This document shows, in pieces, positions 2,668 through 9,030 of a stretch of 9,030 nt of DNA. How positions within the stretch are numbered: the stretch's first letter is position 1; the number at the start of each line of letters is the position of its first letter. The translations under genes and the position numbers were made by a program. The notes beneath the pieces were generated by a model. That model was given only the letters and a program-made list of their open reading frames with translations. It did no database searches and was not told the origin of the DNA. The stretch lies in the IMG/VR virus record IMGVR_UViG_2706794687_000015; one strand, given 5' to 3'. The stretch is from a virus. Its lineage: Duplodnaviria > Heunggongvirae > Uroviricota > Caudoviricetes.

Positions 2668-3085
2668 ATGCCATCTACACGCTATCAAAAAATCAATGCC
2701 CATCACTATCGCCATATATGGGTCGTTGGTGATATTCATGGTGAATATCAGTTATTACAATCCCGTTAACATCAACTCTCTTTTTACCCTGAAACCGACT
2801 TACTTATTTCCACAGGCGATAATATTGATCGTGGGCCGAAGAGTCTTAACGTGCTGCGCCTGCTAAACCACCCCTGGTTTACGTCGGTTAAAGGCAACCA
2901 CGAAGCGATGGCGTTGGATGCATTCGAAACTGGCGATGGAAATATGTGGCTTGCCAGCGGTGGTGACTGGTTTTTCGATTTAAATGATTCAGAGCAACAA
3001 GAGGCAATAGATCTGTTGCTGAAATTCCATCACCTTCCACATATTATTGAAATCATTAATGACAACATAAAATATGCCATCGCAC
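2668..3085 (+). pseudogene. pphB: Serine/threonine protein phosphatase 2 (PPP family), inactivated by premature stop and 3' truncation at IS1
   Basis: ATG at 2668 with AGGG 7 nt upstream. Translation gives MPSTRYQKINAHHYRHIWVVGDIHGEYQLLQSR, then in-frame TAA at 2767-2769. The same frame continues ...GDNIDRGP...GNHEAMA... (PPP motifs GDxHG, GDxxDRG, GNHE) up to 3085, where the IS1 end begins. About 139 codons remain of an expected ~218. Confidence 0.85.
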
Positions 3086-3100
3086 GGTAATGACTCCAAC

Positions 3101-3604
3101 TTATTGATAGTGTTTTATGTTCAGATAATGCCCGATGACTTTGTCATGCAGCTCCACCGATTTTGAGAACGACAGCGACTTCCGTCCCAGCCGTGCCAGG
3201 TGCTGCCTCAGATTCAGGTTATGCCGCTCAATTCGCTGCGTATATCGCTTGCTGATTACGTGCAGCTTTCCCTTCAGGCGGGATTCATACAGCGGCCAGC
3301 CATCCGTCATCCATATCACCACGTCAAAGGGTGACAGCAGGCTCATAAGACGCCCCAGCGTCGCCATAGTGCGTTCACCGAATACGTGCGCAACAACCGT
3401 CTTCCGGAGACTGTCATACGCGTAAAACAGCCAGCGCTGGCGCGATTTAGCCCCGACATAGCCCCACTGTTCGTCCATTTCCGCGCAGACGATGACGTCA
3501 CTGCCCGGCTGTATGCGCGAGGTTACCGACTGCGGCCTGAGTTTTTTAAGTGACGTAAAATCGTGTTGAGGCCAACGCCCATAATGCGTGCAGTTGCCCG
3601 GCAT
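3101..3604 (-). CDS. insB: IS1 InsB frame (167 aa), expressed as InsAB' fusion by -1 frameshift
   Basis: [19 protein letters not shown]... overlapping the insA 3' end in the -1 frame; canonical IS1 organisation. Confidence 0.9.
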
Positions 3605-3798
3605 CCAACGCCATTCATGGCCATATCAATGATTTTCTGGTGCGTACCGGGTTGAGAAGCGGTGTAAGTGAACTGCAGTTGCCATGTTTTACGGCAGTGA
3701 GAGCAGAGATAGCGCTGATGTCCGGCAGTGCTTTTGCCGTTACGCACCACCCCGTCAGTAGCTGAACAGGAGGGACAGCTGATAGAAACAGAAGCCAC
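3523..3798 (-). CDS. insA: IS1 InsA (91 aa), transposition inhibitor / N-terminal part of InsAB' transposase
   Basis: [42 protein letters not shown]... recognised as IS1 InsA with its zinc-finger Cys cluster. Confidence 0.93.
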
Positions 3799-3853
3799 TG
3801 GAGCACCTCAAAAACACCATCATACACTAAATCAGTAAGTTGGCAGCATCACC

Positions 3854-3944
3854 NNNNNNNNNNNNNNNNNNNNNNNNNNNNNNNNNNNNNNNNNNNNNNN
3901 NNNNNNNNNNNNNNNNNNNNNNNNNNNNNNNNNNNNNNNNNNNN
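3854..3944. other. Run of 91 N (assembly or scaffold gap, or masked sequence) between two IS1 copies
   Basis: Literal N characters in the sequence. Flanked on each side by a complete IS1 copy. Confidence 0.95.
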
Positions 3945-3959
3945 GGTAATGACTCCAAC

Positions 3960-4463
3960 TTATTGATAGTGTTTTATGTTCAGATAATGCCCGATGACTT
4001 TGTCATGCAGCTCCACCGATTTTGAGAACGACAGCGACTTCCGTCCCAGCCGTGCCAGGTGCTGCCTCAGATTCAGGTTATGCCGCTCAATTCGCTGCGT
4101 ATATCGCTTGCTGATTACGTGCAGCTTTCCCTTCAGGCGGGATTCATACAGCGGCCAGCCATCCGTCATCCATATCACCACGTCAAAGGGTGACAGCAGG
4201 CTCATAAGACGCCCCAGCGTCGCCATAGTGCGTTCACCGAATACGTGCGCAACAACCGTCTTCCGGAGACTGTCATACGCGTAAAACAGCCAGCGCTGGC
4301 GCGATTTAGCCCCGACATAGCCCCACTGTTCGTCCATTTCCGCGCAGACGATGACGTCACTGCCCGGCTGTATGCGCGAGGTTACCGACTGCGGCCTGAG
4401 TTTTTTAAGTGACGTAAAATCGTGTTGAGGCCAACGCCCATAATGCGTGCAGTTGCCCGGCAT
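3960..4463 (-). CDS. insB: IS1 InsB frame (167 aa)
   Basis: Protein identical to the copy 1 InsB. Confidence 0.9.
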
Positions 4464-4657
4464 CCAACGCCATTCATGGCCATATCAATGATTTTCTGGT
4501 GCGTACCGGGTTGAGAAGCGGTGTAAGTGAACTGCAGTTGCCATGTTTTACGGCAGTGAGAGCAGAGATAGCGCTGATGTCCGGCAGTGCTTTTGCCGTT
4601 ACGCACCACCCCGTCAGTAGCTGAACAGGAGGGACAGCTGATAGAAACAGAAGCCAC
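4382..4657 (-). CDS. insA: IS1 InsA (91 aa)
   Basis: Protein identical to the copy 1 InsA. Confidence 0.93.
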
Positions 4658-4819
4658 TGGAGCACCTCAAAAACACCATCATACACTAAATCAGTAAGTT
4701 GGCAGCATCACCGAAGTGGTAAAGAAGATAATAAAGAATAATATTTAGGGTTATAGGTCTTAGCCCATTTTAAATGGAAGGCAGACATGCAGCCATGCAT
4801 ACTTCGCATGGCAACATAA

Positions 4820-5161
4820 TTATTTAGACAAACTATCTAATTTTTGCGTCGCTTTTTGTGTTAGGTCGCTGTAACTGATAAACCCTACGTTAGCACCTAC
4901 AATTAACACTAAGAACACTAAGCTGCATATGGATAGAGTGGCAGATTTATGCTTATGGAAAACAAAATATGCTACTATTGCACTTAATATGAAGGAAATG
5001 AATAGAAATATAGATGTTGATGTTTTTAGATATTTTTCAGGAAATAATGGGTGAGCAATAATGTATACAAGATTAAGTAGTATATAAATTGCTACCGGAA
5101 TGAAAATCATGCTCCAGTGTGTATCTTTTTTGGGAGGGATTGGCTGCAAATAATCAGACAC
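4820..5161 (-). CDS. Hypothetical small integral membrane protein, 3 predicted TM helices (113 aa from GTG at 5161, or 96 aa from ATG at 5110)
   Basis: Minus-strand ORF ending TAA (plus 4820-4822). Three hydrophobic stretches: IFIPVAIYILLNLVYIIA, IFLFISFILSAIVAYFVF, ICSLVFLVLIVGANVGFI. Very AT-rich codon usage. No family recognised. Start codon ambiguous: GTG at 5161 has a weak GGA upstream; internal ATG at 5110 has GGAG only 1 nt upstream. Confidence 0.55.
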   Translation of the reverse strand: MSDYLQPIPPKKDTHWSMIFIPVAIYILLNLVYIIAHPLFPEKYLKTSTSIFLFISFILSAIVAYFVFHKHKSATLSICSLVFLVLIVGANVGFISYSDLTQKATQKLDSLSK

Positions 5162-5243
5162 CGTTTTTCCATCAGTTTCAAGAAGAATTACTAGATCTCT
5201 TACTTCACCACTGACTTGAGTGCATCCTTAGTAGTAATGTTAA

Positions 5244-5621
5244 TCATTTTTTCCCTCCAAATACGATGCCCTCTACGTCTTTGGAAGCTTTTTGTGATGA
5301 CCACTCCTCTGAATCAGGTGATTTAATTAAAAATATTGTATCTCCATCAAAAATCGTATTTGTTCCGTAAAAATTCACATTTGATAGATCACCACCAAAA
5401 ACCCTCTGCCCACTCGAGGTAATTGCCTCACCTAATTTAGTAAAATTACCAGCAATAGATGATTTTCTTTTTCCACTTCTATTCAAAGTGGCTTTAATTA
5501 CACCACCACCATCCTTAGAGTTAAATAATTGAATGTCCACTCCAGCAGTTGGTTGTATATATTTTGAAAGCTCTTTCTTGAACTTGTTAATATATTTATC
5601 TTTGTTTTCTTTGTTGGTCAT
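5244..5621 (-). CDS. Hypothetical soluble protein, 125 aa, Lys/Gly/Ser-rich, no Cys or His
   Basis: Minus-strand ORF MTNKENKDKYINKFKKELSKYIQPTAGVDIQLFNSKDGGGVIK...IVFGGKK from ATG at 5621. No signal peptide or TM segment. AT-rich. Lies 82 bp upstream of the membrane-protein ORF on the same strand, which suggests a two-gene operon. No family recognised. Confidence 0.6.
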   Translation of the reverse strand: MTNKENKDKYINKFKKELSKYIQPTAGVDIQLFNSKDGGGVIKATLNRSGKRKSSIAGNFTKLGEAITSSGQRVFGGDLSNVNFYGTNTIFDGDTIFLIKSPDSEEWSSQKASKDVEGIVFGGKK

Positions 5622-5658
5622 TGGTTAGATCCATAGTTCTGGCTGTGATTAGGTGAAA

Positions 5659-5664
5659 GTATAC
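5659..5664 (-). promoter_or_regulatory. Candidate -10 element (TATACT on minus strand) for the two-gene cassette
   Basis: TATACT about 38 nt upstream of the ATG at 5621 on the minus strand. No convincing -35 found. Weak, by-eye prediction only. Confidence 0.2.
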
Positions 5665-5793
5665 AAGGTTTTTAAAGCGAAGATCACTGTTTTGGCTTCA
5701 AGATAGTTTTGATTTATCGTAATCAATCCGCCATAATCCTCTCATCGGAGCCTGAACAACTCCGGTGACTTCTGCGCATTTAAGGGGACTTAA

Positions 5794-5889
5794 ATGCGAC
5801 CACAATCTGAACTCATCACCTTGTCACAGATGCAGAAATGCACCTGCGATTTTCTGCATTCTGCGGTTTCCGTTAGGGAGGCCGTATGA
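5794..5889 (+). CDS. ylcH: Small ORF (31 aa) translationally coupled to ybcN; possibly ylcH-like
   Basis: ATG at 5794 preceded by AAGGGGA. Encodes MRPQSELITLSQMQKCTCDFLHSAVSVREAV. Its TGA (5887-5889) overlaps the ybcN ATG (5886-5888) as ATGA. Position matches ylcH upstream of ybcN in DLP12, but the protein sequence was not verified from memory. Confidence 0.4.
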   Translation: MRPQSELITLSQMQKCTCDFLHSAVSVREAV

Positions 5890-6341
5890 CTCTGCCAGTA
5901 GACGGCATCAAACTCCATCGCGGTAACTTCGCGGCCATCGGCCAGCAGATTCAGCCATTGCTGGATGCCGGGCAATGCTTACGCCTGCAGGTTAAGCCGT
6001 GGCGCGAGAAGCGCAGCCTGTCGCAGAACGCGCTCAGCCACATGTGGTACACGGAGATCAGCGAATATCTCATCGCCCGCGGCAAGACCTTCGCTACGCC
6101 TGAGTGGGTCAAAGACGCGATGAAGCACACCTATCTCGGCTACGAAAGCAAAGACCGTGTAGATGTCGTGTCCGGCGAGGTCACCACCGTCCAATCCCTC
6201 CGCCATACGTCAGAGCTGGAAACCGGCGAGATGTACATCTTCCTGTGCAAAGTCGAAGCCTGGGCGATGAATATCGGCTGCCACCTGACAATTCCGCAGA
6301 GCTGTGAATACCAGCAGCTGCGCGATAAGCAGGAGGCGTAA
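5886..6341 (+). CDS. ybcN: Lambdoid prophage NinB/Orf-family protein YbcN (151 aa)
   Basis: ATG at 5886 with AGGGAGG 5 nt upstream. Protein MTLPVDGIKLHRGNF...REKRSLSQNALSHMW... shares the RSLxQN core with lambda NinB (Orf). Matches DLP12 YbcN in length and sequence as recalled. Confidence 0.85.
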   Translation: MTLPVDGIKLHRGNFAAIGQQIQPLLDAGQCLRLQVKPWREKRSLSQNALSHMWYTEISEYLIARGKTFATPEWVKDAMKHTYLGYESKDRVDVVSGEVTTVQSLRHTSELETGEMYIFLCKVEAWAMNIGCHLTIPQSCEYQQLRDKQEA

Positions 6342-6511
6342 TGGCTACACCGCTTATTCGTGTCATGAACGGGCACATCTACAGAGTATCAAATCGTCGT
6401 AAGCGTAAGCCTGAGCTGAAGCCATCCGAAATACCAACACTGCTCGGATATACCGCTAGCCTGGTTGATAAAAAATGGTTGCGACTGGCAGCAAGGAGGA
6501 ATCATGGCTGA
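6341..6511 (+). CDS. ninE: Prophage NinE-family protein (56 aa)
   Basis: ATG at 6341 overlaps the ybcN stop (TAATG). Encodes [56 protein letters not shown]. Its TGA overlaps the ybcO start (ATGGCTGA). Below the length cutoff of the supplied ORF track. Confidence 0.8.
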   Translation: MATPLIRVMNGHIYRVSNRRKRKPELKPSEIPTLLGYTASLVDKKWLRLAARRNHG

Positions 6512-6794
6512 TTTGAGAAAAGCAGCGCGTGGTCGGGAATGCCAGGTAAGAATCCCTGGCGTATGTAATGGCAATCCTGAAACGTCAGTACTGGCACATA
6601 TCCGGCTGGCTGGATTGTGCGGTACCGGTATCAAACCGCCAGACCTGATTGCCACCATTGCATGTTCTGCCTGTCACGACGAAATCGACCGCCGCACATA
6701 TTTTGTCGATGCTGAGTATGCAAAAGAATGCGCGCTGGAAGGTATGGCGAGAACGCAGGTTATCTGGCTGAAAGAGGGGGTTATTAAGGCGTGA
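6504..6794 (+). CDS. ybcO: Prophage DUF1364-family Cys-rich protein YbcO (96 aa), putative zinc-binding nuclease
   Basis: ATG at 6504 with AGGAGG 4 nt upstream (the track ORF begins at an upstream in-frame ATG at 6465). Protein [23 protein letters not shown]...[11 protein letters not shown] has a Cys4 plus His cluster. Matches YbcO as recalled. Confidence 0.85.
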
Positions 6795-7153
6795 ATACCT
6801 ACAGCATCACATTACCCTGGCCTCCGAGCAATAACCGCTATTACCGCCATAATCGCGGGCGCACACACATCAGCGCAGAAGGGCAGGCATACCGCGATAA
6901 CGTCACCCGAATCATTAAAAACGCAATGCTGGATATCGGCCTGGCTATGCCAGTGAAAATCCGTATTGAGTGCCACATGCCGGATCGCCGTCGCCGTGAC
7001 CTGGATAATCTGCAAAAAGCCGCTTTTGACGCACTCACCAAAGCAGGTTTCTGGCTGGATGATGCTCAGGTCGTTGATTACCGCGTTGTGAAGATGCCTG
7101 TTACCAAAGGTGGGAGGCTGGAACTGACCATCACCGAAATGGGGAATGAATGA
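6791..7153 (+). CDS. rusA: Holliday junction resolvase RusA (120 aa)
   Basis: GTG start at 6791 overlapping the ybcO stop (GTGA). Protein [24 protein letters not shown]... contains the acidic catalytic region RRDLDNL ... [11 protein letters not shown]. Matches E. coli RusA as recalled. Confidence 0.9.
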
Positions 7154-7290
7154 TGTTTGAGTTTTATATGGCAGAACTTCTTCGCCACCGCTGGGGGCAT
7201 CTGCGCTTATATCGTTTCCCCGGTTCTGTTTTGACCGATTACCGAATACTGAAGAATTACGCCAAAACCCTGACAGGAGCAGGAGTATGA
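7150..7290 (+). CDS. ylcG: Small prophage protein YlcG (46 aa)
   Basis: Tandem ATGs at 7150 and 7153 overlap the rusA stop (ATGATG). Encodes [46 protein letters not shown], stop TGA at 7288-7290. Below the length cutoff of the supplied ORF track. Confidence 0.7.
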
Positions 7291-7375
7291 AGTCAGAGAT
7301 AACAATCAACTAATACTGTTTTGTTGATTTTTGCTTGTAATTGGCGTTCTGGTCTGATTTTTGTGGAGTAAGTTG

Positions 7376-7759
7376 ATGCGTGATATTCAGATGGTTCTTG
7401 AGCGTTGGGGAGCGTGGGCGGCTAATAATCATGAAGATGTGACCTGGTCGTCCATTGCCGCCGGTTTTAAGGGATTAATTACTTCAAAAGTAAAATCTCG
7501 CCCGCAATGTTGTGACGATGACGCGATGATTATTTGCGGGTGCATGGCCCGTCTGAAAAAGAACAACAGCGATTTGCACGATTTATTAGTAGATTATTAT
7601 GTAGTCGGTATGACATTCATGTCACTGGCAGGTAAGCATTGCTGCTCTGATGGTTATATCGGGAAAAGGTTACAGAAGGCTGAGGGCATAATTGAAGGGA
7701 TGTTAATGGCATTAGATATCCGGTTAGAGATGGATATCGTTGTTAATAACTCTAATTAA
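7376..7759 (+). CDS. quuD: Late-gene antiterminator Q (127 aa)
   Basis: ATG at 7376 with GGAG 7 nt upstream (the track ORF starts at an upstream TTG). Protein [24 protein letters not shown]...[16 protein letters not shown]... has the Cys-rich zinc-binding region. Matches DLP12 QuuD as recalled. Confidence 0.85.
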
Positions 7760-7793
7760 TATGCCAATTGTTTACTAAAAATTATTAAAAATG

Positions 7794-7811
7794 GGGCGTT
7801 GCAACGCCCCC
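7794..7811 (-). terminator. Perfect 18-bp palindrome GGGGCGTTGCAACGCCCC flanked by A5/T5 runs; likely intrinsic terminator for minus-strand (nmpC) transcripts, possibly bidirectional
   Basis: GC-rich hairpin. On the minus strand it is followed immediately by ATTTTTAATAATTTTT. On the plus strand it is followed by CAAAAATAAA, a poor U-tract. Confidence 0.4.
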
Positions 7812-7899
7812 AAAAATAAAGGGTAATATATAACAGAAGGTTTATATAGTTAGAAGCAAGGTTGTGCTCCTAAAGGAAGTGGCTTGAGGGAGCCACTTA

Positions 7900-7933
7900 T
7901 ATGTTGGGGAGGCAAAGCCTCCCGCAACATATC
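7900..7933 (+). terminator. Strong hairpin followed by CTTTT on the plus strand; candidate tR'-like terminator of the Q-controlled late leader, or nmpC 3' stem-loop
   Basis: Core stem GGGAGGC (7908-7914), loop AAA, GCCTCCC (7918-7924), extended by ATATGTTG / CAACATAT with a 1-nt bulge. Followed by CTTTTAG. A second hairpin AAGTGGCT-TGAGGG-AGCCACTT sits immediately upstream at 7878-7899. Confidence 0.4.
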
Positions 7934-7947
7934 TTTTAGTAATCAAA

Positions 7948-9030
7948 TTAGAACTGGTAAACCATACCTACAGCAACGATATCATCGGTAGCAACGCCAG
8001 ATGCTTTCGTGAAATCGCTCTTATCAATCAGGTTGATTTTGTAATCAACAAAAGTGGACATATTTTTGTTGAAGTAATAGGTTGCACCTACATCAATATA
8101 TTCAACCAGGTCCTGATCACCCCACGCACCCAAGTCTTTTCCTTTAGATTGCAGGTAAGCAACGGACGGACGCAGACCGAAGTCGAACTGATATTGTGCA
8201 ACTACTTCGAAGTTTTGTGCTTTGTTGGCAATATGGTTATTACCAAAAACAGTCATGTTCTGGGTTTCAGAATAGGTGGTAGCCAGATAGATGTTGTTCG
8301 CATCATATTTCAGACCAGCTGCCCATACTTCAGCATTTTGACCAGATGCATTCAGGCTGTTGTTACCGTAGATAACCTGATTATTAGTGCGGTCAGATTT
8401 AGCATAGGTTGCACCTACACCGAATCCTTCATACTCATAAGTAGTGGAGAAACCGAAACCATCACCATTAGCTTCAGTTACGTCAGTGCGGTCATTTTTA
8501 CCCTGATACTGAGCAGCAAAGTTCAGACCATCAACCAGACCAAAGAAGTCGTTGTTACGATAAGTTGCAACACCAGTGGTGCGACCAGTCATGAACACAT
8601 CTGTTTGAGTCCAAGTGTCACCACCGAATTCTGGCAGGACGTCAGTCCACGCACCGATGTCGTATGCTACACCGTAGTTACGGCCGTAATCGATGGAGCC
8701 GTAGTCACCGAATTTCAGGCCAGCGAAGGCAAGACGGGTTTTATCTTTGGAGGAACCTTGAGATTCAGCGCGGTTGCCTTTGAATTCATATTCCCACTGA
8801 CCGAAACCAGTCAGTTGATCGTTGATTTGGGTTTCACCTTTGAAGCCAAGACGGGCATAAGTAGTATCACCATCATCTGCATCATTAGAGGAGAAGTAGT
8901 GCTTAGCATTAACTTTCCCGTACAGATCCAGCTTGTTACTGTCTTTATTATAAATTTCAGCTGCCTGAGCAGACATCGCCATCAGTACTGATGCAGCTAC
9001 AGCAGAAATTGCCACTGTTAATTTTTTCAT
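7948..9030 (-). CDS. nmpC: Outer-membrane general porin of the OmpC/OmpF/NmpC family (360 aa), prophage-encoded, apparently intact
   Basis: Minus-strand ORF from ATG at 9030 (window edge) to TAA at 7948-7950. Signal peptide [23 protein letters not shown], mature N-terminus AEIYNKD, C-terminal ...VGMVYQF with terminal Phe typical of beta-barrel OMPs. Closely resembles NmpC/OmpD as recalled. No IS interruption inside the ORF. Confidence 0.9.

Follow-up and report, generated by a model that had tools for sequence, protein, structure and literature searches.

Genes on either side of the IS1 pair

The window, which is the whole 9,030-nucleotide stretch of DNA analyzed here, contains a mutS-pphB region and part of a lambdoid prophage, with two IS1 copies and a run of N between them. 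On the left, a complete mutS gene of 853 aa (1-2562, + strand) is seen as an ORF that annotated mutS in E. coli matches. The exact MutS protein occurs in tens of thousands of assemblies (>42,000 blocks), and the allele is not diagnostic. It is followed by the 5′ 418 nt of pphB (2668-3085, + strand), a pseudogene that has a TAG at codon 34 (2767-2769) and is then cut by IS1. The translation was compared with intact PphB, and intact E. coli pphB extends beyond window position 3085.

On the right, positions 4713-9030 come from a lambdoid prophage, of which they cover the nin/Q/porin segment, and are 99.6% identical to the prophage of E. coli ETEC1731. In the ETEC1731 alignment, the stop of phage replication gene P lies 29 nt past the position that aligns with window 4713, and the 29 nt at 4713-4741 (+ strand) are the 3′ end of this gene, truncated by IS1. 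Each IS1 copy therefore truncates a different gene, copy 1 at pphB and copy 2 at gene P. The idea that the prophage naturally sits beside mutS in E. coli was rejected, as the ETEC1731 prophage is integrated at icd.

The remaining prophage genes begin with a frameshifted gene of 113 aa (4820-5161, - strand), which is named as a hypothetical protein of Shigella sonnei. The nin/Q region (5244-7759) has seven genes: one of 125 aa (5244-5621, - strand), a ybcN-family gene (5886-6341), ninE (6341-6511), ybcO (6504-6794), rusA (6791-7153), ylcG (7150-7290) and quuD (7376-7759). The window closes with a prophage-borne OmpC/NmpC-type porin of 360 aa (7948-9030, - strand) that matches Pfam Porin_1 and Porin_4. 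The frameshifted gene has 142 aa (window 4820-5248, - strand) in ETEC1731 and in two S. sonnei chromosomes (L026, L028); the window and three other chromosomes (L029, L030, L033) have the 113-aa form. An apparent 1-nt indel is the cause of the shortening. Its match to Pfam 7TMR-DISM_7TM is weak and below threshold.

Junction-made ORFs of the window are deposited under Shigella sonnei, namely a 79-aa read-through from pphB′ into IS1 and the frameshifted 113-aa prophage ORF. With an alternative start, the pphB′ ORF has 60 aa, and its matches are in short drafts only. In this species, IS1 is the commonest IS, and IS21 occurs as well (PMC7373316). An exact scan of a genome contig collection for the pphB/IS1 junction found none. 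In that collection, Shigella is presumably merged into the E. coli species representative.

Two identical IS1 copies flank the only N run

The two IS1 copies lie at 3086-3853 and 3945-4712, and the 91 N between them (3854-3944) form the sole N run of the window. Recomputing the coordinates and the alignment bears out the first-pass annotation, which described both copies as full length (768 bp), identical and in the same orientation: there are 0 mismatches between them, and both encode the transposase on the - strand. Their identity ends precisely at the IS1 termini. A perfect 768-bp repeat is far beyond what chance can account for.

Both copies have the features of IS1. In addition to the size of ~768 bp, they end in imperfect ~23-nt terminal inverted repeats, IRL GGTAATGACTCCAACTTATTGAT and IRR GGTGATGCTGCCAACTTACTGAT, which agree at 18 of 23 positions. 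In copy 1, insA occupies 3523-3798 and insB′ 3101-3604, and the two are joined by a -1 frameshift, as in IS1, at the A6C motif TTAAAAAACTC (3539-3549, - strand). The InsA ORF matches Pfam Zn_ribbon_InsA and HTH_Tnp_IS1 (E 1e-21 and 5e-31), and the InsB′ ORF matches DDE_Tnp_IS1 (E 6e-78).

The 9 nt that flank the pair are CCATCGCAC on the left versus GAAGTGGTA on the right, and no target-site duplication around the pair can be fitted for any length between 7 and 14 nt. This upholds the earlier observation that the outer 9-mers differ and that the pair is not one insertion with a target duplication. The 8-9 bp duplication that accompanies IS1 is absent from the window.

Two direct, full-length IS1 copies are the architecture of Tn9 (IS1-cat-IS1), and the interior of the pair is hidden by N. 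The window could thus hold a real Tn9-like IS1-X-IS1 composite, with an interior concealed by the N run or longer than the nominal gap. In Tn9, a single duplication surrounds the whole unit and both IS1 copies are linked at one locus; the window pair lacks both a shared target duplication and demonstrated cargo. The nominal gap of just 91 nt would also be consistent with a true tandem dimer, in which one IS1 transposed beside another and left a short spacer, although short reads would normally assemble a unique spacer of 91 nt. We return to both structures below with the finished genomes, where the two copies come from different loci.

In finished genomes, the left junction belongs to a simple insertion of IS1 into pphB

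Gapless 4.8-Mb S. sonnei chromosomes were retrieved via a lineage-specific FlhA fragment upstream of mutS. Three of these (L037, L040, L043) were inspected, and there are 10 similar places besides. All three have one 768-bp IS1 at exactly the pphB position of the window, with the arrangement CCATCGCAC|IS1|CCATCGCAC-ATGCAGATTATCC, which is a perfect 9-bp duplication that leads into the remaining part of pphB. The gene order to the right is the rest of pphB, ygbI, ltnD and otnK. Because the insertion has its own 9-bp duplication and pphB continues beyond it, copy 1 represents a simple insertion, and its true right neighbor is the 3′ part of pphB. The window has the left copy of the duplication at 3077-3085, and the right copy is missing.

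This insertion resembles any ordinary IS1 in its 9-bp duplication, and the gene disruption that it causes is part of Shigella genome decay. In the finished genomes, its private SNPs are 126 G>A and 593 G>T. Copy 1 has neither of these; its junction with pphB is real.

In finished genomes, the right junction leads into an IS21-family element and the csc locus

For the prophage side, we compared eight gapless S. sonnei chromosomes (L025-L030, L032, L033). The junction IS1|GAAGTGGTAAAG is present in 8/8, and three of them match the window with 0 mismatches across the 4318-nt right flank. A 2130-bp IS21-family element interrupts the prophage-side IS1 after nt 537 in every one, and it is accompanied by a 4-bp duplication, ATAT. 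The order from the right flank outward is IS1 nt 538-768, the IS21-family element, IS1 nt 1-537 and the csc sucrose locus. Only IS1 nt 538-768, equivalent to window 4482-4712, therefore adjoin the right flank, with the IS21-family element beyond. The prophage junction of copy 2 is real, and the copy itself is uninterrupted in the window.

The IS21-family element encodes IstA/IstB and occupies 4463-6596 in L029, which is equivalent to a site between window positions 4481 and 4482; it is absent from copy 2, and its end sequence is TGTTGGGTGGAGCGGACAATCC. On the csc side (L029 2400-3925), there is an intact 415-aa cscB-type MFS transporter, and cscK is cut by IS1. The prophage-side IS1 of the finished genomes has one private SNP, 111 C>T, and the window lacks 111T.

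Even in the finished genomes, the prophage-side IS1 has no target duplication (...TGCAAGCG versus GAAGTGGTA), which implies a later or old IS1-mediated deletion or rearrangement. An old event of this kind at the csc/prophage IS1 is implied to have removed the int-to-P part of the prophage.

A third IS1 lies ~390 nt past window position 9030 in these chromosomes (L025-L033; 11536-12303 in L029), in the same orientation and between the porin and holin genes. It has its own 8-bp duplication, AAAATTGG. The 4.7-kb prophage remnant in finished S. sonnei is thus bracketed by direct IS1 copies and looks composite, and these are independent insertions.

The two flanks are not found together in finished genomes

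Both flanks occur at one place in 0 of 5426 complete E. coli genomes, and no linked flanks are found among the finished S. sonnei loci retrieved, in which the left and right loci were read in separate records. The adjacency of mutS-pphB to the prophage region had been called unproven, and the finished chromosomes agree with this caution: one side continues into the rest of pphB and ygbI, the other into IS21 and the csc locus. The proposal that the flanks belong to distant loci holds in so far as each runs for >5.5 kb into other DNA in relatives; it does not carry over to their distance within one genome.

These loci also bear on the two structures introduced above. The IS1 copies of a Tn9-type element would be linked at one locus, which is seen neither at the finished S. 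sonnei loci nor in the 5426 E. coli genomes. Instead, the outer junctions are independent insertions, the one in pphB with a 9-bp duplication of its own, and what lies inside the respective IS1 is the 3′ part of pphB or IS21/csc rather than cargo. Scaffold products with identical, consensus-like copies and N gaps of variable length are also typical of the sister drafts (see below). The Tn9-type cargo that the first-pass annotation had offered as its alternative is thus unsupported, since each junction belongs to its own insertion, and we regard a real composite as very unlikely. All of these arguments hold for the tandem dimer too. As neither finished locus shows a second adjacent IS1, we consider that structure the more improbable of the two, to the point of being negligible.

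The window copies carry the common IS1 sequence

The SNPs 126A, 593T and 111T are missing from both IS1 copies of the window, each of which has the common IS1 sequence. Assembly from collapsed-repeat reads is expected to yield identical copies of just this kind. The window's IS1 copies are therefore probably reconstructions of a repeat consensus rather than the individual elements at the two loci.

Sister drafts join the same contigs in conflicting ways

Draft assemblies related to the window reveal where contigs end. The pphB′ contigs end 103-125 nt into IS1 (three were inspected, and there are 21 similar places besides), and a contig of ~5 kb with IS1 at both ends usually makes up the prophage remnant. 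Past the position equivalent to window 4713, this 5-kb contig has three different continuations among sister drafts. In L019-L021 and about 20 similar contigs, 231 nt of IS1 are followed by the end of IS21, matching the finished genomes. In L018, the prophage contig is tied to the solA side via IS1(768)-1 N-IS1[125-768], an IS1-N-IS1 arrangement like that of the window but with another partner. In L017, it is tied to pphB′ by an apparently single, gapless IS1.

The gapless IS1 of L017 might be taken as proof that the two flanks are adjacent, and we rejected it as such because alignment reveals an IS21 60-mer inside. This "IS1" is chimeric: it consists of IS1[1-477], 60 nt identical to the very end of the IS21 element and IS1[538-768], with TGTTG microhomology at the join. 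The same 60-mer lies exactly 231 nt from the right flank in seven finished chromosomes. Its presence in L017 shows that IS21 interrupts the prophage-side IS1 even in the sublineage of the window, and that its pphB′ link arose as an artefact of gap closing.

The N runs of the sister drafts vary in length (1, 31 and 232-501 nt). These values indicate a scaffolder that works with estimated gap sizes, and the 91 N of the window fit this pattern.

L017 belongs to the sublineage of the window and has identical flanks, including C at position 2871. This base, which gives PphB Q68H, is found in the window and in the Sanger drafts L014 and L017; E. coli and the finished chromosomes L037, L040 and L043 show A at this position. 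The variant may mark a sublineage. Among 209 blocks with the variant ORF, there is no finished genome of the 2871C sublineage, and the longest contig is 142 kb.

That the prophage contig has the same partner, pphB′, in two drafts, the window and L017, exceeds what random mis-joining among many IS1 ends would give. A deterministic pipeline bias acting on closely related genomes may account for the shared wrong partner. A real adjacency would account for it as well: homologous recombination of the IS1 in pphB with that in the prophage, in the form of a large inversion, would leave one IS1 between the flanks, which the assembler then duplicated around a gap. IS-mediated rearrangements are frequent in Shigella, and the finished references at hand are all outside the 2871C sublineage. 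However, L017 is of the same sublineage, and its chimeric join still contains the IS21 60-mer, exactly 231 nt away from the right flank. A descendant of the pphB copy should also have 126A, but the window and L017 show the consensus G. Furthermore, L018 ties the same contig to solA, and about 20 further drafts lead into IS21. We thus consider a real adjacency through one recombined IS1 unlikely. Its lineage-specific version, in which an inversion by IS1-IS1 recombination within the 2871C sublineage brought the mutS-pphB′ arm next to the prophage remnant and the drafts capture this imperfectly, is in our judgment slightly less probable again.

A scaffold mis-join model for the window

Taken together, the conflicting drafts, the chimeric L017 and the finished loci indicate that the join at 3854-3944 is an unsupported scaffold link between two unlinked contigs. 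We conclude with high confidence that IS1-91 N-IS1 is a scaffolding artefact in an S. sonnei draft, built from two separate, ordinary IS1 insertions. The direct observations are how the two loci are organized in finished genomes, the conflict among sister drafts and the consensus sequence of the window copies. The simplest reading in the first-pass annotation, that two contigs ending in IS1 had been joined with N padding, is thereby confirmed, as each junction leads into other DNA in finished S. sonnei.

The exact scaffolding and gap-filling steps we infer from this pattern rather than from assembly logs. The source is a short-read, scaffolded Shigella sonnei draft, in which the scaffolder would have linked two contigs that ended inside IS1, one being ...mutS-pphB′ and the other the ~5-kb prophage remnant P′-nin-Q-porin. 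Gap filling may then have extended both ends along the collapsed repeat as far as the IS1 termini. There, the reads of many loci diverge and extension would have halted, leaving 768 + 91 N + 768 as the residue. The left junction derives from the simple pphB IS1 insertion, to the right of which the rest of pphB and then ygbI truly lie, and the right junction from the gene P-truncating IS1, which is split by IS21 and borders csc in finished genomes.

In the scaffold mis-join model, the outer junctions are real, and the unreal parts of the window are the link, the lack of an interruption in copy 2 and the base-for-base agreement of the copies. There is neither a composite transposon nor hidden cargo between them; the resemblance to Tn9 is produced by the scaffold.

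Comparison with ordinary IS1 insertions and collapsed-repeat artefacts

The window copies share with simple S. sonnei insertions of IS1 (IS1 family; RefSeq IS1A-like) the same 768 bp, the 23-nt repeats, insA/insB′ and the A6C site. There is no biological difference between them, although the window copies are consensus-built and each insertion site lacks its second half. With the collapsed-repeat artefacts of short-read, IS-rich drafts, the window shares contig ends that lie k nt inside the repeat, variable N gaps, consensus-identical copies and conflicting joins among sister assemblies, with one chimeric closure (L017).

The apparent synteny of mutS-pphB with the prophage nin-Q-porin genes is unfit for gene-context inference, rearrangement calls and mobile-element annotation, and so is the apparent pairing of two IS1 copies. 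The two underlying events, IS1 disrupting pphB and an IS21-hit IS1 truncating a lambdoid prophage, are already well documented for Shigella.

Further gene decay around mutS-pphB

S. sonnei chromosomes without the pphB IS1 (L039, L042, L044) have Leu at pphB codon 34. In L042 and L044, pphB is broken into ORFs of 48 aa and 138 aa, and L039 has one 138-aa ORF. Decay of pphB seems to have taken place independently in separate lineages of this species. The gene for the formate hydrogenlyase activator, flhA (fhlA), which lies upstream of window position 1, is a further decay marker, as it is split into three ORFs of 121, 170 and 387 aa in S. sonnei (L014 4397-6474; L037 9087-11164).
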